DNA of 64,000 bases from Bacteroidales bacterium (lineage in GTDB: Bacteria; Bacteroidota; Bacteroidia; Bacteroidales; JAGOPY01): contig JALNZD010000001.1 of NCBI GenBank assembly GCA_023229505.1, positions 130,823 through 194,822 of the forward strand, written 5' to 3'. The position numbers and the translations under genes were made by a program. Each line of letters starts with the position of its first letter. The first letter of the stretch is position 1. Shown one piece after another: positions 5,834 to 64,000 of this stretch. Below the pieces are notes generated by a model. The model searched no databases and had not been told where the DNA came from. It saw only the letters and a program-made list of their open reading frames with translations.

Positions 5834-5849
5834 TGTTTTATTGTTTAAC

Positions 5850-6538: not shown

Positions 6539-6546
6539 TACATTTG
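6539..6546 (+). promoter_or_regulatory. -7 box TACATTTG upstream of moxR
   Basis: Matches TAnnTTTG, 24 nt upstream of the ATG at 6570. Confidence 0.45.
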
Positions 6547-6569
6547 TGCCGCTTTAAATTCAATCAACT

Positions 6570-7562: not shown

Positions 7563-7601
7563 AATCAGTGAAAAGTGACATTACTTTGACAATAAACTTT
7601 T

Positions 7602-7650
7602 CACATTGAACCTTCAACTTTGCACTTTGAACTTTGCACTTTGAACTAAT
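7602..7650. repeat. Period-7 tandem word array (7 units)
   Basis: CACATTG AACCTTC AACTTTG CACTTTG AACTTTG CACTTTG AACTAAT. It ends 5 nt before the DUF58 ATG. Confidence 0.8.
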
Positions 7651-7655
7651 CGAAG

Positions 7656-8531: not shown

Positions 8532-8532
8532 G

Positions 8533-9525: not shown

Positions 9526-10520
9526 TGTTTTCGAATATTGAATTTGCCAATCCCGGATATTTATTCCTGCTCGTGCTGATGCCCCTGCTGGTGGCCTGGT
9601 ATTGGTTCAGGCGCGGAAAAAGCATCCCGACGGTGCAGGTATCCGCCACCGAGGTATTCGAGAACACTCCCAGGAGCATTCGCCATTACCTGTACCATGG
9701 CATGTTTCTCTTCCGGATTATCGCCGTTTCACTTCTGATCGTGGCTTTTGCCAGGCCCCAGACATCCCTGAAAAGGCAGAATGTCAGCATCGAAGGTATT
9801 GATATTGTGCTGGGACTGGATATCTCGGGCAGCATGCTCGCCCAGGACCTGAAACCAGACCGGCTGGAAGCTGCCAAAAAGGTGAGCCAGGACTTTTTTA
9901 CGGGCCGTCCGAATGACCGTATCGGCCTGGTTGTCTTTGCCGGGGAGGCTTTCACACAATGCCCGCTTACGACTGACCACGTAATCATTGAAGATATGCT
10001 GGATGATATCAAGAGCGGGATCATCCAGGACGGAACCGCCATTGGCGATGGTTTGGCCACTGCCATCAACCGGCTGAAAGAAAGCCAGGCTGTCAGTAAA
10101 GTCATCATCCTTCTGACCGATGGCCAGAACAATGCCGGATCTATTGCCCCGCTTTCGGCTGCAGAAATTGCAAAAATTTATGGTATCCGGATTTATACCA
10201 TCGGTGTCGGGACAATTGGCTATGCCCCTTATCCCGTACAGACCCCTTTTGGCACGCAATACCAGAATATGGAAGTTAAAATCGATGAGGACCTCCTGAA
10301 GAAAGTGGCCAATATGACTGATGGCAGGTACTTCAGGGCGACTGATAATACAAAACTCAAGGAAGTTTACCGGGAAATAGACCAACTGGAGAAATCCAAA
10401 ATAGATGTGACCGAATTCAGAAAAAAACACGAAGAATTTCTTAATCTGGCGATATTTGCGCTTATTTTACTGGCGCTGGAAATTTTATCAAGATTAACCT
10501 TATTCAGAAGTATACCCTGA
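9525..10520 (+). CDS. batA: vWA-domain aerotolerance protein BatA
   Basis: N-terminal TM helices and a vWA MIDAS motif (DISGSM), then LLTDGQNN and a C-terminal TM helix. TGATG overlap with batB. Confidence 0.85.
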   Translation: MFSNIEFANPGYLFLLVLMPLLVAWYWFRRGKSIPTVQVSATEVFENTPRSIRHYLYHGMFLFRIIAVSLLIVAFARPQTSLKRQNVSIEGIDIVLGLDISGSMLAQDLKPDRLEAAKKVSQDFFTGRPNDRIGLVVFAGEAFTQCPLTTDHVIIEDMLDDIKSGIIQDGTAIGDGLATAINRLKESQAVSKVIILLTDGQNNAGSIAPLSAAEIAKIYGIRIYTIGVGTIGYAPYPVQTPFGTQYQNMEVKIDEDLLKKVANMTDGRYFRATDNTKLKEVYREIDQLEKSKIDVTEFRKKHEEFLNLAIFALILLALEILSRLTLFRSIP

Positions 10521-11551
10521 TGTTCCGCTTTGAACACATAGAATACCTGTACGCCCTGCTGCTGATCCCCTTCTTCAGCTTGTTATTCATCCTTTACGGG
10601 ATTTGGAAGAAAAGGGCCATTAAAAGGTTCGGGGATCTGGATGTCATCGCCCAGCTTATGCCACTTTTTTCCGGCAGGAGGCTGGTGTTTAAATTTATCC
10701 TGACCATGCTCGCTTTTGCTTTCCTGATCATCGGGCTGGCCAATCCGCAGATAGGCTCCAAACTTGAAAAGATCCAGCGAAAAGGGGCTGACCTGGTCAT
10801 CGCGCTGGATGTATCAAACAGCATGCTATCACAGGATATCCGGCCAGACCGGCTAACCCGGGCCGTGCAGGGCATCTCCAAACTGGTTGACCGCCTTGAA
10901 GGCGACCGCATCGGCATTGTGGTCTTTGCAGGAAAGGCCTATGTGCAGCTCCCTATCACTACTGATTATTCAGCGGCAAAAATGTTTCTTTCGACAATTT
11001 CCACCCAGATGGTCCCTTCGCAGGGAACCGCTATCGGCGATGCTATCGATCTGTCAGTCGAATCTTTCAAAGCAGACGAAAGGAGCAAGGCAATCATCAT
11101 CATCACCGACGGAGAAAACCACGAAGGCAATGCTGTCGAATCCGCCCAGGCTGCCACCGCCAAAGGCATCAAAATTTTTACGATAGGAATGGGTTCCCCG
11201 GAAGGTTCACCTATACCTGTTTATGACTCCTACGGCAGGCAAACCGGCTATAAGACTGACCGGGAGGGACAGACCATCGTATCAAAACTTGACGAAACTA
11301 CGCTCCAGCAGATCGCTTCAGCCGGAAATGGTATCTATGTGAGGGCATCGACCGGGCAGGATGGCCTGACCAAAATTCTCGACGAAATAAATGCGTTGGA
11401 AAAGCAGGAAATTGAGACCAAGATGTTTTCTGAATATGAAGGCCGATTCCAATATTTCCTGGCGGTCAGCTTGCTATTGTTGATCATTGAATTTCTTATC
11501 CCGGAAAGAAAAAGTAAATGGGCAGACAAAATCAGACTATTTAACCGTTAA
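10520..11551 (+). CDS. batB: vWA-domain aerotolerance protein BatB
   Basis: ALDVSNSM MIDAS motif, ITDGENH, and flanking TM helices. Confidence 0.85.
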   Translation: MFRFEHIEYLYALLLIPFFSLLFILYGIWKKRAIKRFGDLDVIAQLMPLFSGRRLVFKFILTMLAFAFLIIGLANPQIGSKLEKIQRKGADLVIALDVSNSMLSQDIRPDRLTRAVQGISKLVDRLEGDRIGIVVFAGKAYVQLPITTDYSAAKMFLSTISTQMVPSQGTAIGDAIDLSVESFKADERSKAIIIITDGENHEGNAVESAQAATAKGIKIFTIGMGSPEGSPIPVYDSYGRQTGYKTDREGQTIVSKLDETTLQQIASAGNGIYVRASTGQDGLTKILDEINALEKQEIETKMFSEYEGRFQYFLAVSLLLLIIEFLIPERKSKWADKIRLFNR

Positions 11552-11559
11552 TAAGAGAA

Positions 11560-12318
11560 ATGAAAAATAAACGTTCCTATATATTTTTGCTTTTCATGAC
11601 CATGACTCTGCTCTCCTGGTCGCAACAGGAGAACCGGTATATACGGCAGGGGAATAAGCAATATGAAGATGGTGATTACAAAAAAGCCGAAATTGATTAT
11701 CTCAAATCCACCCAGTCGGGCAAAGCTTCGCACAAAGGTTTCTACAACCTGGGGGATGCCTGGTACATGCAGAAAAATTATCTGCAGGCTTCCGCTGCTT
11801 TCGACACGCTCCGGACATTTAAAATGGATGACGAAACCCGTTCCAAATCTTACTATAACCTGGGTAATTCCTTGTTAAAAGCAGCTCTCGACAGTGCACA
11901 GCTGGCCCAGCAGGTTCTCCCACCGGGCATTGAGGCTTACAAACAGTCTTTACGCCTGAATCCAGCGGATGCTGACGCCAAATACAACCTGGCCTATGCT
12001 CAGCGACTGCTTGATAAATCTCAGCAACAGCAACAAAAGCAGGATCAGCAAGACCAAAAGGACCAGCAACAGGATCAGAAAAAGCAAGATCAGCAGCAGA
12101 ACCAGGATCAACAAGATCAGCAGAAAGAGGACGATGCGAAGCAGGACCAGCAACAGCAGGATCAGCAGCAACAACAGGCCCAGCCCCAGCAGATATCCAA
12201 GGAAGATGCTGAACGGATACTGGAAGCATTAAAAAATGATGAAAAACAGACCCTGGAAAAGCTAAAAGAGGCAAAAATAAAAACGATAAGGGTTGTCAAA
12301 TCCGAAAAGGACTGGTAG
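11560..12318 (+). CDS. batC: TPR protein BatC with a Q/D/K-rich low-complexity tail
   Basis: TPR-like N-terminal half, then QQQQKQDQQDQKDQQQDQKKQDQQQNQDQQDQQKEDDAKQDQQQQDQQQQQAQPQQ. Confidence 0.75.
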   Translation: MKNKRSYIFLLFMTMTLLSWSQQENRYIRQGNKQYEDGDYKKAEIDYLKSTQSGKASHKGFYNLGDAWYMQKNYLQASAAFDTLRTFKMDDETRSKSYYNLGNSLLKAALDSAQLAQQVLPPGIEAYKQSLRLNPADADAKYNLAYAQRLLDKSQQQQQKQDQQDQKDQQQDQKKQDQQQNQDQQDQQKEDDAKQDQQQQDQQQQQAQPQQISKEDAERILEALKNDEKQTLEKLKEAKIKTIRVVKSEKDW

Positions 12319-12364
12319 AGTTTTTTATGAAAAAGAAACAACGAAATATCAGCACGGTCAAAAA

Positions 12365-14218
12365 ATGATAAGAATCCTCAGAATATTATTTGTTTTGGCT
12401 ATCCTGGAAGGGGTAACGGATGATATCCTTGGCCAGGCAGTTGAATTCACGGCTTCGGCAAAGAGCAGTGTCCAGGTTGGGGAACAATTAAGGGTGGTTT
12501 ATACGGTCAATAAACAGGTGGATCGTTTTGAAGGACCAGATTTTGAGGGGTTCAGCGTGCTGAGTGGTCCGAACCAGTCAACGAACCAGAGTTATCAGTT
12601 TATCAATGGTAAAGTCTCACAATCTTTCCAGGTTTCCTACACTTATTATCTACAGGCAACCAAAGAAGGCACTTTTAACATTAACCCAGCTAAAGTCACC
12701 ACTGAAGGAAAAACTTACGAATCCAATTCCCTGACAATCAATGTTTCTCAATCGGCCTCTTCCCAGACGCCTACTCAGCAGGGAAACCAGCGGCCTGCCC
12801 AGGCAAGGCAGGAAAGTGTCAATAAAAATGATATTTTTATCAAAGCAACGGTCGACCGGTCCCAGCCTTTCCAGGGCGAACAGGTAATCGTCACTTATAA
12901 AATCTACACAACCATACCGATCTCCCAGATCAATATCAGCAAGATCTCTTCTTTCCCCGGGTTTTGGAATAAAAGCCTGTTGAACGACAATGATCCTTTA
13001 AAACAATCAAATGAAGTAGTTAACGGGAAAGAGTATGTTGTAGCTGATCTGCGGAAAATCGCCCTGTATGCCCAGCGAAGCGGGGAGATCAAAATCGAAC
13101 CCATGGAGCTGCAATGTGTGGCGCAGGTCAAAGTCGAAAATTCACGAACCCGGGACCCTTTTTTCGACAGCTTTTTTAACGACCCTTTCTTTAACCGGAA
13201 TTTTCAAAATGTCGAACTTAAAGTGGAGTCCAATCCGCTGTCCATCAATGTAAAACCCTTACCTGCCAGCGGTAAGCCGCTGGATTTCAGCGGGGCCGTA
13301 GGGTCGTTCAATATTTCTTCGGAAATCGACCGGACTGAATTAAAATCAAATGAGCCCATAACATTAAAGTTTACCATATCAGGAAAAGGCAACCTTGAAC
13401 TGATCGAAGCCATGCCTCTGTCGTTTCCTCCTGATTTTGAAACCTACGATCCGAAGATCACCAATGATCTTACGAAAAATTCCAACGGTATCTCCGGCAG
13501 CATAACCTTTGAATACCTTATCATACCGCGCAATCCGGGAGAATTTCAAATCAAACCGGTCGAATTTTCATTTTTTGATCCTGTCAAACAATCTTACACT
13601 ACTCTTTCAACCCCCCTTTACAATATCAAAGTAAATAAAGGTGAGGATGAATCAAGCGGTATAACTTACAGTGGTGTAAGTCAGAAAAATATACAGTTCA
13701 TCGGATCCGACATCAGGCACATAAAGACGGGACATATCCAGCTTTATCGTATCAATTCATTTTTCATAGCATCATCATCTTTTATATTCTGGCTGATCAT
13801 CCCGGCGTTGCTTTTTATCACGATCATCATTCTATGGTCAAAAAATAAAAAGAGAAGCGGAAATATTGCCCTTGTAAGGAACAGGAAAGCCAATAAAGTC
13901 GCCAGGAAAAACCTTCAAAAAGCCGGTGAATACCTCCAAAGCAATTCGACCGGGGCATTTTTTGAAGAAATTTCCCGTGCATTATGGGGTTACATAAGTA
14001 ATAAGTTCAACATCCCGCTTTCTGATTTATCGATTGAAAGCGTCAATCAGCGGTTATCTGATAAAAGTATCAGTGAAGAAAGCATTCGTAAATTTACCGG
14101 AGTACTTGAAAATTGCGAATACGCCAGGTTTGCACCGGGCGATAAATCTGAGAAAATGCAAGGTATTTATAACGAGGCTCTTGAAGTTATCAGCAAAATT
14201 GAACAGGAATTGAAATAA
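12365..14218 (+). CDS. batD: BatD (oxygen-tolerance) protein
   Basis: The likely start is the ATG at 12365 (MIRILRILFVLAILEG signal). The track ORF begins with TTG inside batC. It has a large extracytoplasmic region, a TM helix (FIFWLIIPALLFITIIILW) and a cytosolic tail. Confidence 0.75.
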   Translation: MIRILRILFVLAILEGVTDDILGQAVEFTASAKSSVQVGEQLRVVYTVNKQVDRFEGPDFEGFSVLSGPNQSTNQSYQFINGKVSQSFQVSYTYYLQATKEGTFNINPAKVTTEGKTYESNSLTINVSQSASSQTPTQQGNQRPAQARQESVNKNDIFIKATVDRSQPFQGEQVIVTYKIYTTIPISQINISKISSFPGFWNKSLLNDNDPLKQSNEVVNGKEYVVADLRKIALYAQRSGEIKIEPMELQCVAQVKVENSRTRDPFFDSFFNDPFFNRNFQNVELKVESNPLSINVKPLPASGKPLDFSGAVGSFNISSEIDRTELKSNEPITLKFTISGKGNLELIEAMPLSFPPDFETYDPKITNDLTKNSNGISGSITFEYLIIPRNPGEFQIKPVEFSFFDPVKQSYTTLSTPLYNIKVNKGEDESSGITYSGVSQKNIQFIGSDIRHIKTGHIQLYRINSFFIASSSFIFWLIIPALLFITIIILWSKNKKRSGNIALVRNRKANKVARKNLQKAGEYLQSNSTGAFFEEISRALWGYISNKFNIPLSDLSIESVNQRLSDKSISEESIRKFTGVLENCEYARFAPGDKSEKMQGIYNEALEVISKIEQELK

Positions 14219-14227
14219 ATCGAATCC

Positions 14228-14989
14228 ATGAAGAACCTGGTGATTATCTTTTGTCTTTTCCTACTGGCCATGAATCTTCCGGCCCAGATGACAAACCTTG
14301 AAAGCCTCATCGAGGCAGGTAACCAGTCCTATTCATCAACAGACTATACTTCAGCCATTTCTCAATATGAAAGTGTCCTCGAATCAGGTATGGAGTCTTC
14401 GAGTTTATATTTCAACCTCGGCAATGCATACTTTAAACTGAACAATATCCCGGCCGCCATCCTTTATTATGAAAAAGCGAGAAAACTGGATCCCACTGAT
14501 GAAAATATCCAATTCAATCTTGACCTGGCCAATAGCAGGATTATTGACAAGATGGAGCCATTGCCTGAGTTTTTCCTGAGAACCTGGTGGAAATCGGCAA
14601 GGGATACATTTTCCTCAGACCGTTGGGCTAAAATCGGAGTGATTGGTTTTATCCTGGCACTGGTTGCATTAACCTTATTTATTGTCTCGGTTTCGATATT
14701 TCTGAGGAAGATATCATTTTGGTCGGGAATCCTGCTCCTGGTCCTGATGTTAGTGTCACTTATCTTCAGCATCGAAGGATACAGGGACTATAGCCGGCAT
14801 AATTCAGCTATTATTTTCACCCCGACCGTTACGGTAAAAAGCTCCCCGAATGATGCCAGCGTTGACTTATTTGTCATTCATGAGGGGACAAAAGTGCTTA
14901 TTACAGACCTGGTAGAAGGTTGGAGCGAAGTGCGTCTGGCCAACGGTCATGTCGGCTGGGTAAAGACCGAAGCCTTCCGCCTTATTTAA
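14228..14989 (+). CDS. batE: BatE-like TPR plus SH3 protein
   Basis: Signal peptide, TPR (YFNLGNAYFKLNNIPAAILYYEKARKLDP), two TM helices, and a C-terminal SH3-like segment GWSEVRLANGHVGWVKTEAF. Confidence 0.75.
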   Translation: MKNLVIIFCLFLLAMNLPAQMTNLESLIEAGNQSYSSTDYTSAISQYESVLESGMESSSLYFNLGNAYFKLNNIPAAILYYEKARKLDPTDENIQFNLDLANSRIIDKMEPLPEFFLRTWWKSARDTFSSDRWAKIGVIGFILALVALTLFIVSVSIFLRKISFWSGILLLVLMLVSLIFSIEGYRDYSRHNSAIIFTPTVTVKSSPNDASVDLFVIHEGTKVLITDLVEGWSEVRLANGHVGWVKTEAFRLI

Positions 14990-15153
14990 TATTTCATAAT
15001 AAATACTCTGATAATCAGTATAAAAGGTCGATAACGGAGCAAGTTGACCTCCTGCCGTTTACTGATTTTGCCTGACCGCTAACTGATTACGGTTTGAAAC
15101 TTATCTATTTAATTTTAAATTTGTAACATCGAACAGTACCCGGATTTTATCAA

Positions 15154-15161
15154 TATCTTTG
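15154..15161 (+). promoter_or_regulatory. -7 box TATCTTTG
   Basis: Matches TAnnTTTG but lies 104 nt upstream of the ATG at 15265, which implies a long leader. Confidence 0.3.
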
Positions 15162-15264
15162 TTAAAATTTTAACTATAGCAGATTTGAGTGTATATAAAA
15201 ATAGTGTAAATTGGGCGTCTGTTTCTGATAAGACGATATGTTGTAAAAATCAAATTCTATTTAT

Positions 15265-18200
15265 ATGAATAAAAGACCTTTACCCCTGGGCTATTTAATT
15301 TCTGCCATCTTTGTTTCCTCTCTTTTAATATCTGCAGCTTTTACCGGCGATGATAAATCTGTTACCCAAAAAGAAACGGCAGCGGACTACATTTCCAAAA
15401 TAAAGAACAACCAGGTAACCGGGCAAATCAGTCCGGCAGATTACCTGAAGGCCATTCAGCAGGTTAAAATGCAGGAAGGGATCAGAACCGGCAATGAGTA
15501 TGATTTTGATTGGGATCTTCTCGGACCGAATAACATTGGTGGCCGGACCCGTGCTATCTTATTTGATAACCGTGATGCCAGCGGAAAAATTATGTATGCC
15601 GGCAGTGTCACAGGAGGCATATTCAGATCAGAAAACGGCGGTGAGAATTGGTCCAAGATCGTGCAGGATGGAAACCTGAATGTGACCTGCATTACCCAGG
15701 CCGGTAACGGTGATATTTTTGTGAGTACCGGGGAAGGCTTTAACGTCCAGGAATATACGGTTCTCAAAGAGTGGGGCTATACAGGCGGTTTAATGGGGCA
15801 AGGGATATTCAAATCCACTGATGGTTTGAATTTCAACCTTCTGCCTGCCACAAAACCCATCCTGAATGGCAATAGTGAACTTGAATGGGGCTTTATCAAT
15901 GAATTGGCTGCCCATCCCGCCAACGGAGCATTGTTTGCCGCTACAAACACGGGTTTGAAATTCTCGGGTGATGGCGGAAACAACTGGCAGGTTGCAAAAA
16001 ATTCCGAAGGTGCTGAATTGTCCCTGAACTCTAAAGATGTTAAAATGGCTGCTAACGGCATGGTCGTAGCAGAAGTCAATAATCTTTGCTATGTTTCGGA
16101 AAACGGTGACCCTAGCAACTTTATACTGCGTTCAGGCGATTCTACTTATAATATTCCTGTTACCGGTGTTGGAAGGATTGAATTTTCAATCGCACCTGCT
16201 GATAACGATATTATTTATGCACTGGTAGTCACTTCCAGCGGGGCACTAAAGAATATTTACCGGTCAGATGATAAAGGTATGAATTGGGTAGTAGTCGGGC
16301 CCGGCGGTAGTTCGAATTTCAATATCTTTAATACGGGAAGTAACATCAGCCAGGGCATCGGGTTATTTGCCGCGACTATCGAAGTGTTCCCGGATGATCC
16401 TTATCACATTCTCATCGGTGGGCAGGATATGTGGGAAGGCAAAAAAATCCTTGATGAAGGATTCTACCAGTGGATTTCACGCTCATCTGCAGTCCTTTTT
16501 TGGTTAGACGAGCCATTCCTGTGGCAAGGGCATCACACCTATCAATTTATGCCCGGTTCTCCAAACAATTTCTTTGCAGGCACCAACGGAGGTATATCAA
16601 TGGGCACGGTTAATCCGCAACTCTATGTATTCCAATTCATGAACAAGGATTATATCGCCAGCCAGTTCTATACTGTCAGCCCGACGTTGGAAAAGAAAAA
16701 TGTACTGGGAGGCGCACAGGATATCGGCACTATCTTTATTAACGGCGCTGCCAATCCCTCCGATAGTAAAAGAGGCGAGGATATCTGGACCACTCAGAGT
16801 GATGTGCCTGACGGCAAAACCGGCGGTTATTGTGCAATGTCTTTAATCTATCCGACAGCTGTTATCTATTCAAGGCGTATTCAATCTGTGGCAACCCCCC
16901 TTCCCCCCCCAGAGTTCAGACGTAATGAGTTCGGCGGTGGACCCGACTGGGCGGCTAGTATGCTCCCAGCTACTACTATCTATGCAAGCACAGCCTTTCT
17001 TTCACCCTTCCTGCTCTATGAAAACTTCGAAGATTTCAACACAAAAGATACCGTTGAATATAAAATTACCAGGCATTTCGCTGCAGGATCAGTAATTTGG
17101 ATTGAAAGCAATAATGGCAAACGGCCTTTTAAATATATCACCCCTGTTGCTCTCACACCAGGCGATTCGATCGGTGTGCCGGATATTATCACTGCAAGGT
17201 TTTTCATCGGCGGCGATAACCGTGTGTTAATGACCAAACAAATGATTCAATTCAATGTTAATCCTGAATGGTTTGTCATCAGCGACACGGCACATGATGG
17301 TGTCGCAGATAAACCGCAGTGCATGGCTTATTCATCTGATGCAAACCACCTTTTTGTCGGCACAGATAAAGGAAAGCTTTACAGGATTTCGAATATAAAG
17401 TATGCTTATAATTATGAAACGGCCGATGTAAACAGCGCTTATTGTGTGATCTCCACCAAACAGATACCTGTTTATCTGCCAGGCACGACAACGGAAATTT
17501 CACAGGTTATAACATCCGTTTCTGTAGATCCAAATAATGACAGCAGGGTCATGATCACCCTTGGCAACTATGGTAATGAGCACTATGTTTTTTATTCAAA
17601 TAATGCCCTTGCTGAAAACCCGGTATTCATCTCGGCTCAAGGCGACCCCGGTAACGGTGGCCTCCCGCAGGCACCGGCTTATTCTTCACTTTTCGAAATG
17701 GATCCTGATAACAACCTGGTCTTTGTCGGAACAGAAAATGGCATTTATGTTACAAATAACATAGGATCTGGCAACCCGACCTGGGTGGCTGAAAACAATA
17801 ACCTGGGAGGCGTACCGGTATTTATGCTGAAGCAGCAGAATGTCAGAAAAGGCAATGATACGCTGGCTTTTGTGAATATCGACACGACTTATGTCATCTA
17901 TTACGGGGTCAATAATTATGGGGTGATTTACGGAGCAACATACGGAAGGGGCCTCATCTCACTCGATAATTTCCAGAAGCCGGTAGGCATTTCAGAACCC
18001 GGTAAAATTGATAATAAAAATGGTTTCATGATTTACCCGAATCCCGCCGATGACAGGGTGACCGTTGCTTTTGAAACGGTGACAACGGGTAATGTTGAGA
18101 TCAGAATTTACAATCTCACGGGAAATCTTGTTATAAGTGTCGACCTGGGCATAAGGCCTGAAGGCAGGCATGATGCTATCATTAATATTGCCAACCTGAG

Positions 18201-46718: not shown

Positions 46719-47084
46719 ATGAAAAGAAACATGATCCGTAAAGTATTAGGTGGATTAAGTTTCACCTCCGCACTTTTTATGTTTCAGGCATGCTACGGGA
46801 CTCCACAGGATGTTGGAATTGATATACTGATTGAAGGCCAGGTGAAATCGGCGGCAACTGGAGACCCGATTAAGGGCATTAAGATCTCAATAGCTGATGG
46901 ATCACAGTATCAATTTAGTGATGTCGATGGAAAGTTCTCTTTATACACAGACCCGTTTGAAAACAAAATGATGCATTTTGAAGACATCGATTCAATAGAA
47001 AATGGTTCATTTCTCAGCAAAGACACAGTTCTCACAAATATTAACGACTACGTGTATCTGAATATTGAATTGGAAGAAGAATAG
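46719..47084 (+). CDS. Small lipoprotein paired with a radical SAM enzyme
   Basis: Lipobox ALFMFQAC and a CarboxypepD_reg-like beta-sandwich segment (IEGQVKSAATGDPIKGIKISIADGSQYQFSDVDGKFSL). Its TAG stop abuts the rSAM ATG. Confidence 0.6.
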   Translation: MKRNMIRKVLGGLSFTSALFMFQACYGTPQDVGIDILIEGQVKSAATGDPIKGIKISIADGSQYQFSDVDGKFSLYTDPFENKMMHFEDIDSIENGSFLSKDTVLTNINDYVYLNIELEEE

Positions 47085-48161
47085 ATGTTCGATCATCTCA
47101 GAACCAAGGTAAGTCAGAACCTGTTTCTTAAGTTCAAACAACAGGAATCCAAAATACACGAAATCAGCTACTTATTTTGGGAGTGCACTTCAAGGTGCAA
47201 CCTGAATTGCCTGCATTGTGGCAGTGACTGCTCCAAAGACAACCATCATGCCGATATGCCAATGGAAGATTTCTTTAAGGCAATTGATACAATAAAGCAG
47301 GCTCGCTATCCTGTCACAGTCGTACTAACCGGTGGAGAACCATTATTAAGGAAAGATATTGAAACCTGTGGCAAAGAATTGAGAAGAAGAGGCTTCAGGT
47401 GGAGTATGGTTTCAAATGCCTATTTGTACAATGAAAATAAACACAATTCATTGCTTAATGCGGTTATGGGTGCATTGACTTTCAGCCTTGACGGCATGGA
47501 AGAAAATCATAACTGGTTGCGAAATTCAAAGACGATTTTTAAAAAGGTAGATAAAGCAATTGATCTGGCAGTCAGTTCTTCAAGATTGAATTTTGACATT
47601 GTAACCTGCGTCAACCAGCGGAATTTGAATGAACTGCCGGATATTTACGATTACTTAATTCGAAAAGGGGTGAAAGCATGGCGGTTATTCACCATTGCCC
47701 CTATTGGAAGGGCTGTCACGAATAAAGAATTGATGCTCAAACCCGGCCAGTTAAAACTATTATTGGATTTTATCGCAGGCAAAAGATCGGAAAAAGTAAT
47801 GGATATGAAATTCAGCTGCGAAGGCTATGTTGGTCATTATGAAAACCTGGTAAGGGATGGTTTTTTCTTTTGCAGGGCAGGGATAAATATTGGTTCTGTT
47901 TTAATTGACGGATCCATCTCTGCCTGCCCGAATATTGACAGAAGTTTTTCACAGGGGAATATTTATCATGATAATTTCTTTCATATATGGCAGACAGGAT
48001 TTCAGGATTTTCGCAACAGGGATTGGGCAAAGAAGGGTCGATGCAAAAACTGCAAGGATTTTAAATATTGCCAGGGTAACGGGCTTCATTTTTGGCATGG
48101 GGATAAAGAGAATGTGCTGGTTTGTCACAAAGAACAATTGGACAGTTGGACAGTTGGATAG
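47085..48161 (+). CDS. Radical SAM enzyme with a SPASM-like C-terminal Cys-rich domain
   Basis: CX3CX2C motif (CNLNCLHC), GGEPLL, and the C-terminal region CPNIDRS...CKNCKDFKYCQGNG. Confidence 0.85.
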   Translation: MFDHLRTKVSQNLFLKFKQQESKIHEISYLFWECTSRCNLNCLHCGSDCSKDNHHADMPMEDFFKAIDTIKQARYPVTVVLTGGEPLLRKDIETCGKELRRRGFRWSMVSNAYLYNENKHNSLLNAVMGALTFSLDGMEENHNWLRNSKTIFKKVDKAIDLAVSSSRLNFDIVTCVNQRNLNELPDIYDYLIRKGVKAWRLFTIAPIGRAVTNKELMLKPGQLKLLLDFIAGKRSEKVMDMKFSCEGYVGHYENLVRDGFFFCRAGINIGSVLIDGSISACPNIDRSFSQGNIYHDNFFHIWQTGFQDFRNRDWAKKGRCKNCKDFKYCQGNGLHFWHGDKENVLVCHKEQLDSWTVG

Positions 48162-50259: not shown

Positions 50260-50272
50260 ACAGCAACTACCG

Positions 50273-50342
50273 GTTGGCAGTTATTGGTTATTGGTTACAG
50301 TCACACTTCACTTTTCACGCTTCACCTCTCACGTCTCATGAA
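50273..50342. repeat. Period-7 array (10 units, two word families)
   Basis: GTTGGCA GTTATTG GTTATTG GTTACAG | TCACACT TCACTTT TCACGCT TCACCTC TCACGTC TCATGAA. Confidence 0.85.
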
Positions 50343-50397
50343 ACAAAAATGAGTTCTCAGTTGTTCAATAATATAGAATAGTCAAAAAATAATAACC

Positions 50398-51630
50398 ATG
50401 TTTAATTCAGTAGCATTAGATGTAGTTATAGGCCTGGTATTAATTTACCTTCTGTATAGCCTGTTAGCAACGGTGCTTTCAGAACTGATAGCCACGATAC
50501 TGGGCCTGAGGGCCCGGAACCTGAAAGAAGCAATCGACAGGATGCTTAACGATGAAAAGGAAACCGGCTTTTGGCGCAGGTTATGGGATTCCATAAAGTT
50601 AATGAAGAATCCGAAGAACAAAATAGTCGACGCTTTTTATAATCATCCGGAAATTAAGTACCTGGGAAGTTCCGGTATATTTAAAACGCCTTCCTCCATC
50701 AAAGCGGTTAGTTTTTCCAAAACTTTGATGAACTTAATGTTTGGCAACGATTCGGTTAACAGGGAAATAATTGAGAACAGGTTACAAGGAATTATAAAAA
50801 AAGCTGAAGGCACAAACAAAGAGGCAAAGGATATAATAAAATTAGATCCGGAAACTACATTTTATATTCAGAGTTTGTGGTATCAATCGCAAGGAGATAT
50901 TGCGAAATTTAAAATACAATTGGAAGGGTGGTTCGACCGCACTATGGAGCAGACAACCGTTTGGTATAAGCGCAAAATACAAATTGTATTACTGGTACTG
51001 GGCTTTTTTCTTGCCTGGATTTTTTGTGCCGACACGTTTTCAGTGATTAATAAACTCGCTATTGATAAAGATGCCAGGGAGAAAATAGTCAGCATGGCAA
51101 ATGCTTACGTTCAGAACAACAAAACGCTCATTGATAACATTGCCATTAAAGATACTTCTGAATTGAAGGAATACAGGCAAAAACTTGATTCATTGCTGGC
51201 AATAAAAAAACAATTGGATGCCGACATAGCCAATGCCGGCAGCATCCTCGGATCAGGCGCCTGGCTGCCGGATAATGTAAAAGTTATTACAGACCCGCAA
51301 ACGAATAAAAAGACCTATTATCCTGCAATAGATGCCGCTTCCATTTTAAAGAAAAAAATACCTGATGAAAAAGGAAATCTGACATTTAACACACTGGAAA
51401 AATGGGGCTATTTTTTCAGATTGTTGTATCATCATTTTTTTGGGTTTTTCATCACTGCGATAGCCATATCTCTCGGTGCTCCTTTTTGGTTTGATTTGCT
51501 GAATAAAATGATGAAATTGAGGACTTCCAAAAAGGAAGGAACCGATAGCACGACCCAAACAACTGTGGCCAATACCCAGCCTATGACCGTAAACATTAAC
51601 ACTCGATCCGGTGAGGAGGCGGCAGGTTGA
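50398..51630 (+). CDS. Hypothetical 3-TM membrane protein (C-terminal motif SLGAPFWFDLLNKMMKLR)
   Basis: Hydrophobic segments at about aa 5-36, 194-213 and 343-366, with long charged helical loops. Low G+C. I cannot name a family. Confidence 0.6.
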   Translation: MFNSVALDVVIGLVLIYLLYSLLATVLSELIATILGLRARNLKEAIDRMLNDEKETGFWRRLWDSIKLMKNPKNKIVDAFYNHPEIKYLGSSGIFKTPSSIKAVSFSKTLMNLMFGNDSVNREIIENRLQGIIKKAEGTNKEAKDIIKLDPETTFYIQSLWYQSQGDIAKFKIQLEGWFDRTMEQTTVWYKRKIQIVLLVLGFFLAWIFCADTFSVINKLAIDKDAREKIVSMANAYVQNNKTLIDNIAIKDTSELKEYRQKLDSLLAIKKQLDADIANAGSILGSGAWLPDNVKVITDPQTNKKTYYPAIDAASILKKKIPDEKGNLTFNTLEKWGYFFRLLYHHFFGFFITAIAISLGAPFWFDLLNKMMKLRTSKKEGTDSTTQTTVANTQPMTVNINTRSGEEAAG

Positions 51631-51632
51631 TT

Positions 51633-52544
51633 ATGCCATCAACAGAAAAACCACTGGTTATAAATATTTTAGATAATAAAGACTGGGGATTTATTGATTT
51701 TAAGATTGATGAACTTTGGAAGATATCCAGAGGAAAAGATATTAAAGTAGCAGTGCTTGATTCGGGATTGAATTATAATATGGATGACTTTAAAAATAAC
51801 AAAAACATCTCTTATTATAATGCATTTATGGATTCTGAAAATAAAACTGATTGTCTTGATGATTCTTATGGACATGGAACTAATTGTGCCGGCATTTTAT
51901 GTGCACAAGGCAAAGTTATTTCCGGTGTTGCTCCTGACATAAATTTACTTTCTGTAAAAATTACCAATGAAACAGGAGAAAGGACTTCAAAAGCAATTTT
52001 AAAAGGCCTGGAAAAAGCAATTGCGCTTAATTCGGATGTTATATCTTTAAGCTTTAGTATAGCTAAATTGGATGAAAATTTTAATGGTATTCATGATAAA
52101 ATAAAAGAAGCTTATCAGAAGGATATTGTTGTTTTAGCTGCTGCCGGTGATAGTGGTGCATTGGATTTCCCGGTGGATAATTTTCCCGCATCATTTGTAG
52201 AATGTCTTTCAATAGGCGGAATTGACAGGACAAGGAAAAGAAGTAAATATTCAACCAAAAGTAATTTTCTTGATTTAATGGGACCAGGGGAGGATTTGAT
52301 GTCGGTATTAAGTCCTGATATAAAAATAAACGGGACAAGTTTCTCTACACCCTTTGTTGCAGGTGTTATCGCTTTATTAAAGTCATTTGCAAAAAGTAAA
52401 AATCTTTCATTGACAAATATTGAAATATATGATATCCTTAAAAGGACTGCTGATATCAAGGTTGCGGATACCTATAACCTGGTCGATTACGGATGGGGGA
52501 TCATGGATCCTGTTGCAGCTTTCAACTTATTATCTACGAAATAA
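51633..52544 (+). CDS. S8 (subtilisin-family) serine peptidase without a signal peptide
   Basis: Catalytic motifs VAVLDSG (Asp), HGTNCAG (His) and GTSFSTPFVAG (Ser). The start is the ATG at 51633, or a TTG at 51627 that overlaps the upstream TGA. Confidence 0.85.
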   Translation: MPSTEKPLVINILDNKDWGFIDFKIDELWKISRGKDIKVAVLDSGLNYNMDDFKNNKNISYYNAFMDSENKTDCLDDSYGHGTNCAGILCAQGKVISGVAPDINLLSVKITNETGERTSKAILKGLEKAIALNSDVISLSFSIAKLDENFNGIHDKIKEAYQKDIVVLAAAGDSGALDFPVDNFPASFVECLSIGGIDRTRKRSKYSTKSNFLDLMGPGEDLMSVLSPDIKINGTSFSTPFVAGVIALLKSFAKSKNLSLTNIEIYDILKRTADIKVADTYNLVDYGWGIMDPVAAFNLLSTK

Positions 52545-52554
52545 AATTGTCAAA

Positions 52555-54579
52555 ATGAAGAAATTATTAATATCCTGTATTTTGACCATCATTTCTATCG
52601 GAGCTTTTTCGCAAATAGCCTATTATGATGCTGTTGAATTATCAAAGTATATTGATCGTAATGCTAATCCTCCTGTTTTTAAAAATGATAATGCATCATT
52701 GACAAGCGTGTCTGAAATACTATTAAAGTATTGTCAAAATCTCCCTGACCCGACAAATTTTCATAATGTCATTAGTGCTATAACGACTGATAATCCCGCT
52801 AATAAAAATTACAATCCTATTCTGGCCCCTTATCTGGATATAGTGATCCCGGAAGGCGCTTCAAACATCTCTGTAAAATCCATGATATCCTCTGTAAGCA
52901 ATCTCAATGTCACCGACTTTGCCGATGACCTTGCCAAATTCCTTGTAGAACGAAGTAAAGAAGAACTTAATGTAGCTTTCTTCCGAAAATTCCAGGAGTT
53001 TTTCATATCTTATCCTGAAGCGAAGATTATTTTCCCGACTACTTATGATTTCTTAAAAGAAATCTATTCCTACCAGTATGCCGCAATGCTTCCTGCCTTA
53101 AAAGCCGCTTTTCAAAAGGACTTGAACGCATTTACCACGAATCTTCTTAACCTTCGTGAAATTTCTGATTATGATGGTTATAATACTGATGAAAAAATCA
53201 GGCGAAGAGCTGATGAAATCACCGACCTCCTCAAAACACCGGGAGGAAGGTCTGTTATTGGCGCCCTCATTGTTGCCAATGGCATTGTTAAGGGTAACCA
53301 TGCAGCAGATATTATAAGCAATCTTGCCGGCGATGACATCTGCAAAGCATTCCCCGATGATAACTTTTCCAATACAATCCAATTTGTTGATCTTGTATCG
53401 CACTCATTAAGAAGCAATGATGAAGGAAGGGTCTGGATTACCAAACAGCAGGCAAGCGCTTTGGTTAAAGATGATATCGCATTGAATATTTATCTTGGAT
53501 TGATTTATGCAACAGATCAGAAAAACAGCCATCATATTAAATTTATGCTGGATAGCTCATCGGTTACTTTAAAAGCTTTTTTAACCGATTTAAATACAAA
53601 ATGGCCGTCTGCAGAAGCATTAAGATTTAAAGAAAACTTCGCTGTAATGGCTGATGCTATGAGCGAAGTTGCAGATAATGCCAAAAATGTAATTGATGCA
53701 AAACAACAGGGCGATCAGGCTTCTATTATTGTTTATGCTGATTATGCATCTTCCATTTCCAGCTATTTAAAGCAGGCCGTCAACTTCCTTTCAAACAATG
53801 CCGGCATTAATCCTTCACTATCAAAGCTTGTTCCTGAAATGCTGAAATTCACAAATGTTATTGATGATGCAGCCAATGCCTGTTATGATTTAAAATCGCA
53901 GAATTATGGTGCATTAGTGCTGCATACTTCTGCCATACTTGCGGAATTATTAGAATCCGGTTATACATTTAAAGACGATTATATTAAATACGGAATCTTC
54001 ATGGCGAATGTTGTCGAAGCAAATAATTCTGACGAGGTCAACGCTGCCATAGAAGCTGCTGTATTGCCTGTTGGAAGTTCTTCCATCAAAAGAGAAACGG
54101 ATTTCAATATTTCTTTAAACGCATATATCGGCCCATATGGAGGGGCCGAATATCTGCCAAAGCTTAAAACAGATCAATGGGCGTTTACAACAGGAATTAC
54201 AGCTCCTGTCGGAGTCGCGTTGAGCTGGGGAAATATAGGGAAAGGAAAAACTATTGGTCTTGAAAAGATAAAAGGCGGAAAAAGTTTTACCATTTTTATT
54301 CCGGTCATCGACGTTGGCTCATTGGCTAGTTTCAGACTGGGAAATGATAGCAGCAAAGTAGCATCTGATGTCAAGCTGGCAAATATTATTTCACCTGGTG
54401 TTTATTTTTATTATGGTTTTGGCAAGTGCCCTGTTTCAATTGGATTGGGAGGGCAGGTCGGCCCTCAGATAAGGGGAGTCACTGCAACTGATGTAAATGT
54501 TGATAAAAATTTCTATTTCAGGTTTGGGCTAAATATCGTTGTTGATATTCCATTTTTTAACCTTTATACAAAGAACTAA
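52555..54579 (+). CDS. Hypothetical 674-aa secreted protein (helical body, beta-rich C-terminus)
   Basis: The likely start is MKKLLISCILTIISIGAFSQ (ATG at 52555). The C-terminus GVYFYYGFG...FYFRFGLNIVVDIPFFNLYTKN looks beta-barrel-like. I recognise no family. Confidence 0.6.
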   Translation: MKKLLISCILTIISIGAFSQIAYYDAVELSKYIDRNANPPVFKNDNASLTSVSEILLKYCQNLPDPTNFHNVISAITTDNPANKNYNPILAPYLDIVIPEGASNISVKSMISSVSNLNVTDFADDLAKFLVERSKEELNVAFFRKFQEFFISYPEAKIIFPTTYDFLKEIYSYQYAAMLPALKAAFQKDLNAFTTNLLNLREISDYDGYNTDEKIRRRADEITDLLKTPGGRSVIGALIVANGIVKGNHAADIISNLAGDDICKAFPDDNFSNTIQFVDLVSHSLRSNDEGRVWITKQQASALVKDDIALNIYLGLIYATDQKNSHHIKFMLDSSSVTLKAFLTDLNTKWPSAEALRFKENFAVMADAMSEVADNAKNVIDAKQQGDQASIIVYADYASSISSYLKQAVNFLSNNAGINPSLSKLVPEMLKFTNVIDDAANACYDLKSQNYGALVLHTSAILAELLESGYTFKDDYIKYGIFMANVVEANNSDEVNAAIEAAVLPVGSSSIKRETDFNISLNAYIGPYGGAEYLPKLKTDQWAFTTGITAPVGVALSWGNIGKGKTIGLEKIKGGKSFTIFIPVIDVGSLASFRLGNDSSKVASDVKLANIISPGVYFYYGFGKCPVSIGLGGQVGPQIRGVTATDVNVDKNFYFRFGLNIVVDIPFFNLYTKN

Positions 54580-54585: not shown

Positions 54586-55086
54586 ATGAAAACCATCTAC
54601 ATCGTCAGGCATGCTAAATCATCATGGAATATGATAGATATACCAGATGAACAACGACCGTTGCTGGAGAAAGGTAAGAAAAGGATCAAAAAGGTCATTG
54701 ATTACCTGCATGAAAAACATATCAAGGTTGATTACATTATTTCCAGCCATGCCGTCAGGGCGCATGAAACGGCTAAAATCCTGGCACACGCTTTAAAATA
54801 CCCTATCGAAAACATCAAGATCGATTCAAAGATTTATCATGGCAATGGTGACGATATCCTGAACCAATTCTATGATCTGCCCGACCGCTTCGACTCGGTG
54901 ATGATCGTTGGCCATAACCCTTCATTGACAGATTTTGTAAATATTTTCCTGAAATCCCCTATCGACAACCTTCCAACTTCGGGAGTGGTCAGCTTTACTT
55001 TTGATACGGACAAATGGGAGAAAGTGGCTAATGCTGGCCGGAAAACGAATTTCATTCTCTTTCCTAAAGAATTGCCGGGAAAATAA
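54586..55086 (+). CDS. sixA: SixA-type histidine phosphatase family protein
   Basis: IYIVRHAKSSW (RHG/RHA motif), HAVRAHETA and VGHNP. 166 aa. Confidence 0.8.
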   Translation: MKTIYIVRHAKSSWNMIDIPDEQRPLLEKGKKRIKKVIDYLHEKHIKVDYIISSHAVRAHETAKILAHALKYPIENIKIDSKIYHGNGDDILNQFYDLPDRFDSVMIVGHNPSLTDFVNIFLKSPIDNLPTSGVVSFTFDTDKWEKVANAGRKTNFILFPKELPGK

Positions 55087-61869: not shown

Positions 61870-62805
61870 ATGTCAAAAGAAATTAAAGTCTTATCCGTCA
61901 ATATCTCCGAAAAAAAAGGGACCATCAAACAACCGGTTGATTTCATCGAACTGGACGAACTGGGCGTAAAACAGGATGCCCATGCCGGCAATTGGCACCG
62001 GCAGGTCAGCCTGCTGGCCAAAGAGAGTGTCGATAAATTCTCTTCCGCTGCCGGCAGGGAAATCCGCTTTGGTGAATTCGCTGAAAATATCACGACAGAC
62101 GGCATCATCCTCTATGAAACACATCCGTTCGACAGGTTCATTATCGGTGAAGCAGAGCTTGAAGTGACGCAGATCGGCAAGGAATGCCATGGTGATAATT
62201 GTGCTATCTACCGTGAAGTTGGCAATTGTATCATGCCAAAAGAAGGGATTTTCTGCCGGGTACTCCGGCCGGGGAAAGTTAAAGCGGGTGATACGATCAC
62301 CTTCACCCCGAGGATTTACAGGCTAATGGTAATCACGCTAAGTGACCGGGCCAGCCAGGGAATTTATGAAGATAAAAGCGGCCCCCGGGTTATAGCCCTC
62401 ATGGAAGATTTTTTCAAAAAACTCAATTGGCAAAGCCAAATCAAACATCATATTATTCCCGACGATGATAAAAGTCTGCAAAACCTTCTGAAAGATGCTA
62501 TTGCCGGTCAGTTTGATTTTGTTATCACTACCGGTGGAACCGGTATCGGGCCAAGAGATATCACCCCGGAGGTGGTGCGATCAGTAATAGAAAAAGAAAT
62601 TCCGGGAATCATGGAGATGATCAGGATGAAGTACGGCCAGGAGAAACCCAATGCGCTGCTAAGCCGCAGCATGGCCGGAGTTGCCGGGAAGACTATCATC
62701 TATGTTTTGCCGGGCAGTGTAAAAGCCGTGAACGAATACATGGCAGAGATAACCAAGACGATAAAGCATACACTGTATATGCTGCATGGACTGGATGCGC
62801 ATTGA
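61870..62805 (+). CDS. MOSC domain fused to MogA/MoaB-type molybdopterin adenylyltransferase
   Basis: The N-terminal ~150 aa are MOSC-like (GVKQDAHAGNWHRQVSLL...EVTQIGKECH). The C-terminal half has MogA motifs (ITLSDRAS, ITTGGTGIGPRDITPE, LPGSVKA). Confidence 0.8.
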   Translation: MSKEIKVLSVNISEKKGTIKQPVDFIELDELGVKQDAHAGNWHRQVSLLAKESVDKFSSAAGREIRFGEFAENITTDGIILYETHPFDRFIIGEAELEVTQIGKECHGDNCAIYREVGNCIMPKEGIFCRVLRPGKVKAGDTITFTPRIYRLMVITLSDRASQGIYEDKSGPRVIALMEDFFKKLNWQSQIKHHIIPDDDKSLQNLLKDAIAGQFDFVITTGGTGIGPRDITPEVVRSVIEKEIPGIMEMIRMKYGQEKPNALLSRSMAGVAGKTIIYVLPGSVKAVNEYMAEITKTIKHTLYMLHGLDAH

Positions 62806-62917
62806 TTCCAGGTTCCAACCTCAATTTCACATCAACTAAAGGGGAGTTCTATAAATTAAATCATTGTTATTCAAATAATTATGTGTATATTTGCCAATAA
62901 TTTAATACGAAAACACG

Positions 62918-63864
62918 ATGTCATCACAAGTGTATAAAACAAAGGGCGAAAAAGGATTATTTGACGAGCAATATACCATTGAACGTTTGTCGGCAATTGG
63001 CAATCCTTTAGAGAAGATAAGCAATGTTATTGATTTTGAGGCTTTTCGCAGCACATTAGAATCAAAACTGTTAAATACAGAAAAGAAAAACAATGCAGGA
63101 GCAAAACCATTTGATGTAGTGATGATGTTTAAAATCTTGATATTACAACGCTATTATGGACTTGGAGATACACAGGTTGAATATCAGATAAACGATAGAT
63201 TAAGTTTTAAAAAGTTTTTGGGATTGCAGTCTGGCGATAAAGTTCCTGATGAAAAAACCGTTTGGGCATTTAGAGAAAACCTAACAAATAGTGGAGTTGT
63301 AGAATTATTGTTCAGTCAGTTTATACAATATTTAGATGATAAAAACCTGATATTCAATATAAAAAAAGGCACAAAGATATTGATGCCCGATGGACAAAGA
63401 AAAATGGCGAGAAATATTACGGGCATAAAAATCATGCAAAAGCAGATTCCAAAAGCAAATTCATCAACACGTATGTAGTTACAGATGCTTCGGTGCATGA
63501 CTCACAGGCTTTAGATGGTTTGCTGGAAAAAAGCGACAAAGGGCAACCATTATATGCAGACAGTGCTTATACTGGCGAAAAGCAGAAGAAAGCAATTAAA
63601 AAGCATAAACTTAAAAATAAAGCTCACGAAAAAGGATATAGAGGCAAACCATTGACTGATAAGCAAAAAGCGAAAAACAAGATAAAATTTAAAACAAGAG
63701 CAAGAGTAGAACACGTATTCGGCTTTATGGAGCAGAGCATGAACGGATTGGTTGTGAAATCTGTAGGAATAGTAAGAGCAACTGGTATAATCGGGCTGAT
63801 AAATCTCACATACAATCTCTTTAGATTTGAACAAGTCCAAAGACTGAATTTATGTAAGGTGTAA
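62918..63864 (+). mobile_element. IS5-family DDE transposase, disrupted (two frames; likely internal deletion)
   Basis: ORF1 (62918-63478) carries the N-terminal helix-rich domain. The -1 frame, open from 63343, reads YKKRHKDIDARWTKKNGEKYYGHKNHAKADSKSKFINTYVVTDASVHDSQ...YADSAYTG...RARVEHVFG. The segment that normally holds the first catalytic Asp appears to be missing. Confidence 0.75.
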
Positions 63865-63870
63865 TATCCT

Positions 63871-63906
63871 GTTAGTTAGTTAGTTAGTTAGTTAATTAGT
63901 TAGTTG
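63871..63906. repeat. (GTTA)n / (TTAG)n microsatellite-like array
   Basis: GTTAGTTAGTTAGTTAGTTAGTTAATTAGTTAGTTG, starting 6 nt after the transposase stop. Confidence 0.85.
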
Positions 63907-64000
63907 TGAGAAAAATAGAAGAGAACTTGGATTTTTTGAACATAAATTGAAAATTAGTTGTAATATTACTTTACTTTTTCAGCACAGATTTAAATGGGTT

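Follow-up and report, generated by a model that had tools for sequence, protein, structure and literature searches.

In holin-endolysin(-spanin) cassettes and in the type 10 secretion systems domesticated from them (T10SS; ChiWXYZ of Serratia, the TtsA loci and TcdE/TcdL), the gene of a membrane protein adjoins those of leaderless peptidoglycan hydrolases, enzymes which act only outside the cytoplasm. To our knowledge, T10SS are the only named route other than phage lysis by which folded leaderless proteins cross the inner membrane, and they use recognisable phage holins. How such proteins pass the inner membrane outside phage lysis is the question addressed by a cassette of three genes, termed g1, g2 and g3, which we analysed within a 64,000-nucleotide stretch of a Bacteroidales genome (contig JALNZD010000001.1, positions 130,823 to 194,822 of the forward strand; referred to as the window). 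We propose, with a probability of roughly 0.45, that the cassette works like an undescribed holin-type lysis or export module, in which the membrane protein g1 would give cytoplasmic hydrolases access to the periplasm and the protease g2 would act on the exported protein g3. Leaderless peptidoglycan hydrolases are encoded beside g1 relatives, coupled to them or fused with them, and therefore something must grant these enzymes access to the periplasm, which is the same genetic argument from which the holin dependence of T10SS endolysins was inferred (PMC9527704). No described holin-like, subtilase or SH3 system of Bacteroidota resembling the g1 family or the cassette was found in the literature.

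Open reading frame calls on the window revealed three co-directional and closely packed genes on the forward strand. The first, g1 (50398–51630), encodes a 410-residue predicted inner-membrane protein with three transmembrane (TM) segments, the second, g2 (51627–52544), a 305-residue S8 subtilase devoid of signal peptide and prodomain, and the third, g3 (52555–54579), a 674-residue exported protein in which a signal peptide and a helical body precede a beta domain at the C-terminus. The start codon of g2 is a TTG at 51627, which overlaps the TGA of g1 (51628–51630) in a stretch of 4 nt, an in-frame ATG at 51633 being an alternative start; g3 begins with the ATG at 52555, and its gap to g2 amounts to 10 nt. 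The co-directional packing, the stop/start overlap and the 10-nt gap given in a preliminary description of this DNA were all reproduced when open reading frames and junctions were checked.

Hydrophobic segments of g1 were located at residues 1–37, 192–218 and 347–368, and the TM segments are given as TM1 (residues 5–35, nt 50410–50502), TM2 (residues 194–214, nt 50977–51039) and TM3 (residues 336–365, nt 51403–51492). TM1 holds the invariant Glu29 and TM3 ends in the motif SLGAPFWF (residues 358–365, nt 51469–51492), such that the three TM segments and the conserved motif beside TM3 reported earlier were recovered. Among 76 diverse family members the invariant positions include Glu29, Arg38, Pro98, Trp178, Gly349 and the complete stretch from Ser358 to Phe365. 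The number of Lys and Arg residues at the ends of the TM segments favours an N-out/C-in orientation by 13:6. This predicts a cytoplasmic location for a loop of 158 residues and the basic tail, while a helical loop of about 120 residues would face the periplasm. An N-out/C-in arrangement of three TM segments followed by a basic C-terminal tail is the topology of class I holins, and the likeness of g1 to holins and T10SS proteins extends to these predicted features. The AlphaFold2 (AF2) model is all-helical and of modest confidence (predicted local distance difference test score, pLDDT, 65).

Close homologues of g1 number in the thousands, every one of them labelled hypothetical and most of them from Bacteroidota. 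A profile search against 1.84 billion cluster representatives (clusters at 50% identity) retrieved 12,905 clusters at E ≤ 1e-3 and 8,852 at E ≤ 1e-10, the family members being 340–530 residues long. No match to g1 was obtained in Pfam, NCBIfam, PADLOC or PHROGs, a Pfam scan of the 76 diverse relatives assigned a family to none of them, and the PDB yielded no match either by sequence profile or by Foldseek with the AF2 model. Proteins of the g1 type with the motif LGAPFWFD were observed in proteobacterial mobile elements of high G+C, next to ParB-methylase and P4-type primase genes (L161, 7992–8828; L162, 8001–9737; L164, 4911–5774; loci are designated by L and a number). One of them lies on a Rhizobium plasmid, where the gene order is 'cell wall hydrolase', g1-like protein, metallophosphoesterase.

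The gene neighbourhoods of the g1 family show a strong pattern of wide scope. A scan centred on g1 and restricted to one genome per species gave 79 loci out of more than 560 matching stretches, for which open reading frames were called and neighbours clustered. Besides numerous families of Bacteroidota, these loci represent Ignavibacteria and a few further phyla. In 58 of the 79, a co-directional gene follows g1 within 150 nt, the overlap often being 1 or 4 nt. The partner assigned by Pfam is an S8 subtilase in 17 loci, a YdjC protein in three, a DUF900 protein in two, an alpha/beta hydrolase followed by an ADC-like gene in two, and a papain C1 protease, an Amidase_2 enzyme and a GDSL lipase in one locus each; GH46-like partners occur in seven loci according to clustering, four of them above threshold. 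One or two genes further downstream, a GH24 phage-type lysozyme (L042, L048) or a patatin (L013, L015, L055, L074) is encoded. Upstream of g1 we found, likewise without signal peptide, CHAP plus PG_binding_1 proteins (L010, L013, L055), M15_4 plus PG_binding_1 proteins (L082, L083), a papain C1 protease (L038) and a patatin fragment (L028). Moreover, a trypsin-like protease is fused to g1 in several metagenome loci and, at the C-terminus, in L067, L073 and L077. What the members of this much wider set of cassettes have in common is g1 as their conserved anchor, and most of the partners are hydrolases other than proteases. As in T10SS, these cassettes are chromosomal and located outside phages. 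A leaderless peptidoglycan hydrolase next to the membrane protein, as is characteristic of holins, was encountered across the g1 family in the form of GH46-like, GH24, Amidase_2, CHAP and M15_4 enzymes, whereas its place in the window is taken by a protease; unlike in holin and T10SS loci, the partners extend to proteases, lipases and deacetylases. The regulated-lysis role considered in the preliminary description fits this family-wide link of g1 to peptidoglycan hydrolases.

Several of these loci deserve separate mention. In L048 (756–3508) and L042, a g1 relative is followed by a 192-residue protein with signal peptide, coiled coil and C-terminal TM segment and then by the GH24 lysozyme, an order that resembles a holin-spanin-endolysin phage lysis cassette. 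In L082 (7694–9928) and L083, the g1–S8–g3 trio is preceded on its 5' side by one or two proteins of about 475 residues combining TPR-S and MAP3K_TRAF_bd and by a leaderless PG_binding_1 plus M15_4 peptidase.

A further hallmark is located at the junction between g1 and its partner. The Shine-Dalgarno (SD)-like sequence GAGGAGG (51613–51619, forward strand) lies within the last codons of g1, 7 nt before the TTG and 13 nt before the ATG of g2. Members of the g1 family with a coupled partner almost always terminate in Gly, often in GEEAVG, which is encoded as GAG GAG GCC GTA GGN stop. In 12 g1 ends, comprising 11 relatives ending in EEA[VI]G and the window protein ending in EEAAG, all 24 Glu codons are GAG, although g1 of the window overall prefers GAA over GAG by 14:6; the conservation of the C-terminus therefore acts at the level of nucleotides. 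A function of GEEAVG as docking motif was considered and discarded on the basis of this codon analysis. The GGAGG at the 3' end of g1 is likely a signal for translational coupling of the partner, as judged from its position and codon usage. This strong element in front of partner genes is conserved at the g1 ends of L018, L031, L034, L036, L046, L049, L068 and L069. Bacteroidota in general make little use of SD sequences, and the conserved GGAGG may point to a special translational control of the hydrolase genes.

The partner enzymes share properties beyond their position. The S8, GH46-like, DUF900 and YdjC partners open with a common module of about 65 residues (MK..V...LN.R...P......G..I......G....G..WY....FYW.GGV) that resembles a bacterial SH3 domain, one member matching SH3_5, and a signal peptide was detected in none of the partners of these four classes that carry it. 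A catalytic domain preceded by an SH3b-like or PG_binding_1 module, as encoded by the g1-linked genes, recalls the modular endolysins and cell-wall hydrolases of Gram-negative type, which carry a wall-binding domain at the N-terminus; in distinction to these, the g1 partners carry the SH3b-like module on S8 proteases, DUF900 esterases and YdjC deacetylases as well, and it is absent from g2. In L086, an Amidase_2 domain, the SH3-like module and an S8 domain are united in a single protein, and therefore the protease is tied to the cell wall. A search for fusion partners with the profile of the N-terminal module (A6) returned 14 short fragments only.

The identity of g2 as subtilase is well founded. 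The protein matches Peptidase_S8 of Pfam (PF00082) at 4.8e-40 with 138 bits compared to a cut-off of 21.8, and its triad D45/H83/S238 is complete and aligns with D32/H64/S221 of subtilisin BPN', while the oxyanion position is occupied by Asp175 instead of Asn. Its N-terminus contains no hydrophobic signal and the protein has no TM anchor, in agreement with the earlier description as a complete D/H/S subtilase lacking an export signal. The triad is complete in 21 of 22 cassette proteases. The best relatives of solved structure are the intracellular subtilisins (ISPs) of Bacillus (7y6m at 2.1e-31; 7xr8), which share with g2 the lack of a signal peptide and of a classical prodomain. Unlike the ISPs, to which it is distantly related, g2 is part of a three-gene membrane cassette and has Asp for Asn at the oxyanion site, and most of its orthologues carry the SH3b-like N-terminal module or an Amidase_2 fusion. 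The absence of the module in the window protein has parallels in the S8 genes of L024, L025 and L091; its closest relative, g2 of L080 (75% identical), possesses 69 additional N-terminal residues forming the SH3-like module, which g2 of the window has lost. Two assignments of g2 to described systems were rejected. Matches to IetS are weak (1e-4 to 9e-3) and confined to short stretches of the catalytic domain, and an IetAS defence system was dismissed because no ATPase gene is present in or beside the cassette. A mycosin of type VII secretion is at variance with a TIGR03921 score of 161 bits versus 278.75, the lack of signal peptide and TM anchor, and the absence of ESX neighbours.

The third protein, g3, starts with a signal-peptide-like N-terminus (MKKLLISCILTIISIGAFS) and a near-invariant Gln after the predicted cleavage site. 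In its AF2 model (pLDDT 76), a helical body precedes about eight beta strands (pLDDT 50–83), which make up the C-terminal domain. Along the forward-strand gene the protein is divided into a signal peptide (residues 1–19), a small N-domain, a low-confidence linker (residues ~96–138), the helical body (residues ~126–515) and the beta domain (residues ~517–673, nt 54103–54576); residue numbers of the model are shifted by +1, since the query began one codon early at 52552. The signal peptide, helical body and beta-rich C-terminus announced in the preliminary description were thereby seen again. Foldseek against the PDB matched the beta domain weakly and locally to the TM domain of OmpA, Ail and NspA (probability 0.4–0.5), and against BFVD to a phage-encoded OmpA-domain outer-membrane protein (probability 0.96, E 0.028), whereas the helical body gave no significant Foldseek match. 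On the basis of these model comparisons, the beta domain is probably an outer-membrane anchor of the OmpA/Ail type. No match for g3 was found in Pfam, NCBIfam, PADLOC, PHROGs or among PDB sequence profiles, and the statement that g1 and g3 belong to no named family stands for the four family collections searched. Homologues of g3 (68 found) are fewer than those of g1. A third, envelope-spanning or outer-membrane-associated component likewise occurs in some versions of holin cassettes and T10SS. From spanins g3 differs by its type I signal peptide without lipobox Cys, by a C-terminal beta domain in place of a TM helix, by the lack of a PHROGs match and by its association with a protease rather than an endolysin.

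This association is tight. In the g1-centred set, all 20 g3-like genes come after an S8 gene or a g1-trypsin fusion. An independent scan of metagenome contigs centred on g3 gave 72 loci, where a protease gene (S8 or trypsin-like) is situated directly upstream of g3 in 46 of the 55 testable cases and a g1 relative is found within 3.8 kb in 28 of 33, and the trio thus does travel as a unit, a point that the preliminary description had proposed to check. In ten loci, g1 and S8 are separated by about 1 kb, presumably one extra gene. In L088, which was looked up separately, this position is occupied by an SH3-tagged lysozyme-like gene. The protease-g3 pair also persists in altered surroundings: g3 is accompanied by a trypsin-like protease on a different TM anchor in L101 and L122, it adjoins a papain-like C1 protease in L102, and in L086 a non-homologous membrane protein takes the place of g1 while the pair is kept; g3 stands alone in L106 and L119. 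Overall, g3 tracks the protease, which may belong to three unrelated classes, more tightly than it tracks g1, and it is therefore the best candidate for the substrate, or for a direct partner, of the enzyme. This pairing provides a testable protease-substrate hypothesis.

Individual arrangements of the trio are as follows. At locus L088 of Flavobacterium sp. 90 (4426–15888) four genes are present: g1 (528 residues) is followed by the lysozyme-like gene and then by one for an S8-like protein, both products bearing the SH3 tag and the latter having a degenerate oxyanion site, and g3 comes last. In L102 (5656–8905), one open reading frame fuses the first ~36 residues of g1 (TM1) to a g3-like protein and is followed by the papain-like C1 gene; either this cassette has decayed or g3 is paired here with a third class of protease. 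Homology of the L086 membrane protein to g1, and of the exported proteins of L041, L035 and L015 to g3, was rejected (hhalign probability ≤10%, with the signal peptide as sole aligned stretch).

The combination of an inner-membrane and an outer-membrane protein invites an explanation without lysis, in which g1 and g3 would together export or display the leaderless protease across both membranes. This possibility is consistent with the observation that protease and lipase partners are accompanied by exported proteins with a beta-rich C-terminus, namely g3 and, read from the sequence only, a 402-residue protein in the patatin set, and that such a protein is usually missing where the partner is a peptidoglycan hydrolase, acting in the periplasm. 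We nevertheless consider it distinctly unlikely: the helical body of g3 is unlike known secretins or usher proteins, the other downstream exported proteins are not homologous to g3, and an eight-stranded barrel of the OmpA/Ail type is too narrow for the passage of proteins. The constant company of g3 and protease could also be that of an immunity protein, periplasmic or in the outer membrane, and a leaderless contact-delivered toxin. Typical effectors of type VI secretion include amidases, muramidases, lipases and proteases without signal peptides, and a T4 gp19-like tube gene lies near L085. We give this notion very little credence, as secretion-system genes and PAAR, VgrG or Hcp domains are lacking in the window and in most loci, g3 with its 650–870 residues and membrane anchor is unlike the small immunity proteins, and the coupling and fusion of g1 would be left unexplained.

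Comparison of close relatives indicates that the cassette is modular. Locus L084 shares its synteny (glyA, M1 peptidase, g1, a 141-residue gene, sixA, ppk, moeA, moaA) with the window and encodes a g1 76% identical to that of the window, but g2 and g3 are missing and the 141-residue gene stands in their place. In L085 (g1 69% identical) the partner is a GH46 enzyme, and L080 (g1 63% identical), located near sixA-ppk, contains the closest relatives of g2 (75%) and g3 (68%). The base composition differs along the cassette, with values of G+C and of G+C at third codon positions (GC3) of 0.395/0.43 for g1, 0.332/0.24 for g2 and 0.379/0.33 for g3, compared to 0.463/0.53 for the M1 peptidase and 0.472/0.58 for ppk in the flanks, whose GC3 ranges from 0.53 to 0.63. 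The comparison of these three loci and the low GC3 show that g2 and g3 form an exchangeable, horizontally acquired module and that g1 is the resident anchor; the pair was gained as a unit downstream of g1. The compositional trough noted earlier is real (gene G+C 0.332–0.395 versus a window mean of 0.441), but the contrast at gene level is smaller than implied by the 60-nt samples then used, and other low-G+C blocks exist in the window (46719–48161, the first ~6 kb and the last 2 kb at ~62–64 kb).

The proposed holin-like mechanism builds on the gene order and coupling, the fusions, the partner repertoire, the missing signal peptides, the intact triads and the modular acquisition observed at these loci, and on the predicted topologies. 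In this scenario, g1 would serve as conserved inner-membrane protein encoded directly upstream of, and coupled to, leaderless enzymes with extracytoplasmic substrates, and the enzyme module of the window would consist of the intracellular-type S8 protease g2 and its obligate companion g3, which is probably anchored in the outer membrane and extends a long helical domain into the periplasm. On some trigger, g1 might let the folded cytoplasmic hydrolase into the periplasm, where the protease would then process g3 or envelope proteins bound by g3. The outcome might be a disruption of the envelope or outer membrane or the release of material.

Several findings weigh against this proposal. The protein g1 has no similarity in sequence or fold to any known holin and is several-fold larger than typical holins (410 residues, with loops of 158 and ~120 residues, versus ~60–150 residues); the entire family, with 340–530 residues, two large loops and no homology to holin families, deviates in the same manner from the holins of phages and T10SS. 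Relatives of g1 are nearly absent from viral sequence: none was found in 50,697 phage genomes and two in 2.9 million viral contigs (IMG/VR), neither of them adjoining an endolysin. An assignment of g1 as phage holin family was rejected on these counts, as neither IMG/VR relative is part of a lysis cassette. The lack of homology, a size three to five times that of holins and the near-absence from viral sequence are therefore the reasons why we describe g1 as working like, rather than being, a holin. In addition, the confidence of the AF2 model is low and the topology depends on the positive-inside count, g2 is devoid of the ~65-residue SH3b-like N-terminal module, L084 keeps g1 without hydrolase, and about one quarter to one third of the g1 loci have housekeeping-looking neighbours only, for example RidA in Chitinophaga and an epimerase or DUF4382 protein in Bacteroidales. 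That hydrolases pass through g1 and that g3 is cleaved are inferences from gene order and sequence, and so are the trigger and the outcome for the cell.

Some of these points would be expected if the genes were adjacent without a common function, g1 having its own role as a channel or stress protein and its 3' flank being a hot-spot of integration. The retention of g1 without g2 and g3 in the syntenic L084, the housekeeping neighbours of many g1 loci and the far higher conservation of g1 compared to its partners are in line with such a coincidence. We regard it as quite improbable in view of the stop/start overlap and the conserved SD-like junction element, the repeated g1-protease fusions, the restriction of partner classes to envelope-directed hydrolases in Bacteroidota and on the Rhizobium plasmid, and the SH3-like N-terminal module common to the partners.

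The holin-like reading may be extended to the g1 family as a whole, although the extension is doubtful. The family might represent an unrecognised inner-membrane gate of a polymorphic system, through which interchangeable hydrolases, many of them tagged with the SH3b-like module, enter the periplasm, and in whose protease versions the enzyme acts on the outer-membrane-anchored g3, which would bring about outer-membrane disruption or release. With equal reserve we suggest that this gate belongs to a pathway of lysis or export which is widespread among Bacteroidota, has relatives in other phyla and bears no detectable sequence or fold similarity to phage holins or spanins. If g1 is a gate, it would embody a new principle of membrane translocation or lysis and explain how leaderless envelope hydrolases reach their substrates. 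For Bacteroidota, a phylum dominant in gut, soil and marine habitats, it would also offer a handle on autolysis, the release of vesicles or enzymes, or abortive infection. The g1 cassette would be a new type of lysis or export cassette built from unrelated parts.

The preliminary description had compared the locus with protease-activated membrane effectors such as the bacterial gasdermin-protease pairs. Common to both are the tight linkage of a protease gene to a membrane-acting partner and the exchange of the protease class (S8, trypsin-like or cysteine) while the partner is kept. However, a gasdermin fold or family was not detected with Pfam, PADLOC or Foldseek, g1 is an integral helical membrane protein, g3 is exported by Sec and probably anchored in the outer membrane instead of being a soluble cytoplasmic pro-toxin, and the protease of the g1 cassettes carries neither sensor repeats nor an NTPase domain. 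The likeness to gasdermins was consequently abandoned. Of the more general effector logic, the replacement of the protease by non-homologous classes is retained, but g1 is not a dedicated substrate, and it is g3 that tracks the protease.

Closely related is the possibility of anti-phage abortive infection, in which a protease activated by infection would cleave g3 or g1 and thereby kill the cell, and which may overlap with a lysis module. A sporadic distribution, partner swaps between close relatives and the horizontal acquisition of g2 and g3 would suit such a role, as would the displacement of the protease class by non-homologous ones, which is likewise known from bacterial gasdermin systems. 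Moreover, g2 matches the 'subtilase' model of PADLOC at 1.3e-17, L088 is located ~2 kb from genes for a reverse transcriptase, an STM3845-family protein, a TIR protein and a ThsA_Macro protein, L082 is flanked by the TPR-S/MAP3K_TRAF_bd proteins, and L162 is embedded in a P4-like element. The PADLOC match is limited to the generic catalytic domain, though, and g1 and g3 have none; the protease lacks a sensor domain (NTPase, repeats). Among 123 neighbours of 20 trio loci analysed with PADLOC and Pfam, most are housekeeping genes, no defence family recurs and each is represented by a single protein, while the flanks in the window are glyA, M1 peptidase, sixA, ppk and moeA. The location in a defence island, for which the preliminary description had proposed a test, is therefore not a general property, the defence matches being scattered. 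Neighbours that do recur are CHAP/PG_binding_1 proteins and metallophosphoesterases (5 of 123 neighbours; also in L085). We conclude that a defence role of the cassette is possible but unlikely, its context in general giving no indication of it.

Downstream of the cassette, a gene for a SixA-like histidine phosphatase (54586–55086) begins 6 nt past the g3 stop and is followed by ppk. It may be co-transcribed with the cassette in the window, but was rejected as a fourth cassette gene, since in the relatives sixA stands apart from the trio in a conserved sixA-ppk backbone; the pairing of sixA and ppk is kept in L080, L082 and L084. On the other side, g1 is separated from the M1 peptidase gene by a spacer of 138 nt (50260–50397, forward strand), which comprises a hairpin (50264–50283) and 2.4 copies of a 14-nt tandem unit, TCACGCTTCACCTC, at 50301–50333. 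The corresponding spacer in the syntenic L084 measures only 22 nt. Judging from its sequence, the spacer may contain the terminator of the M1 peptidase gene and a promoter or regulatory region of the cassette.

Outside the cassette, the segments 1–6000 and 62000–64000 of the window have a G+C content of 0.36–0.40. The low-G+C block between glyA and the M1 peptidase gene (46719–48161; 0.38–0.40) encodes two proteins. The first, of 121 residues, begins with a hydrophobic stretch resembling a signal and has a weak match of the CarboxypepD_reg-like kind; the second is a radical SAM enzyme of 358 residues. This pair looks like an insertion, because in the syntenic L084 the M1 peptidase gene directly follows glyA.

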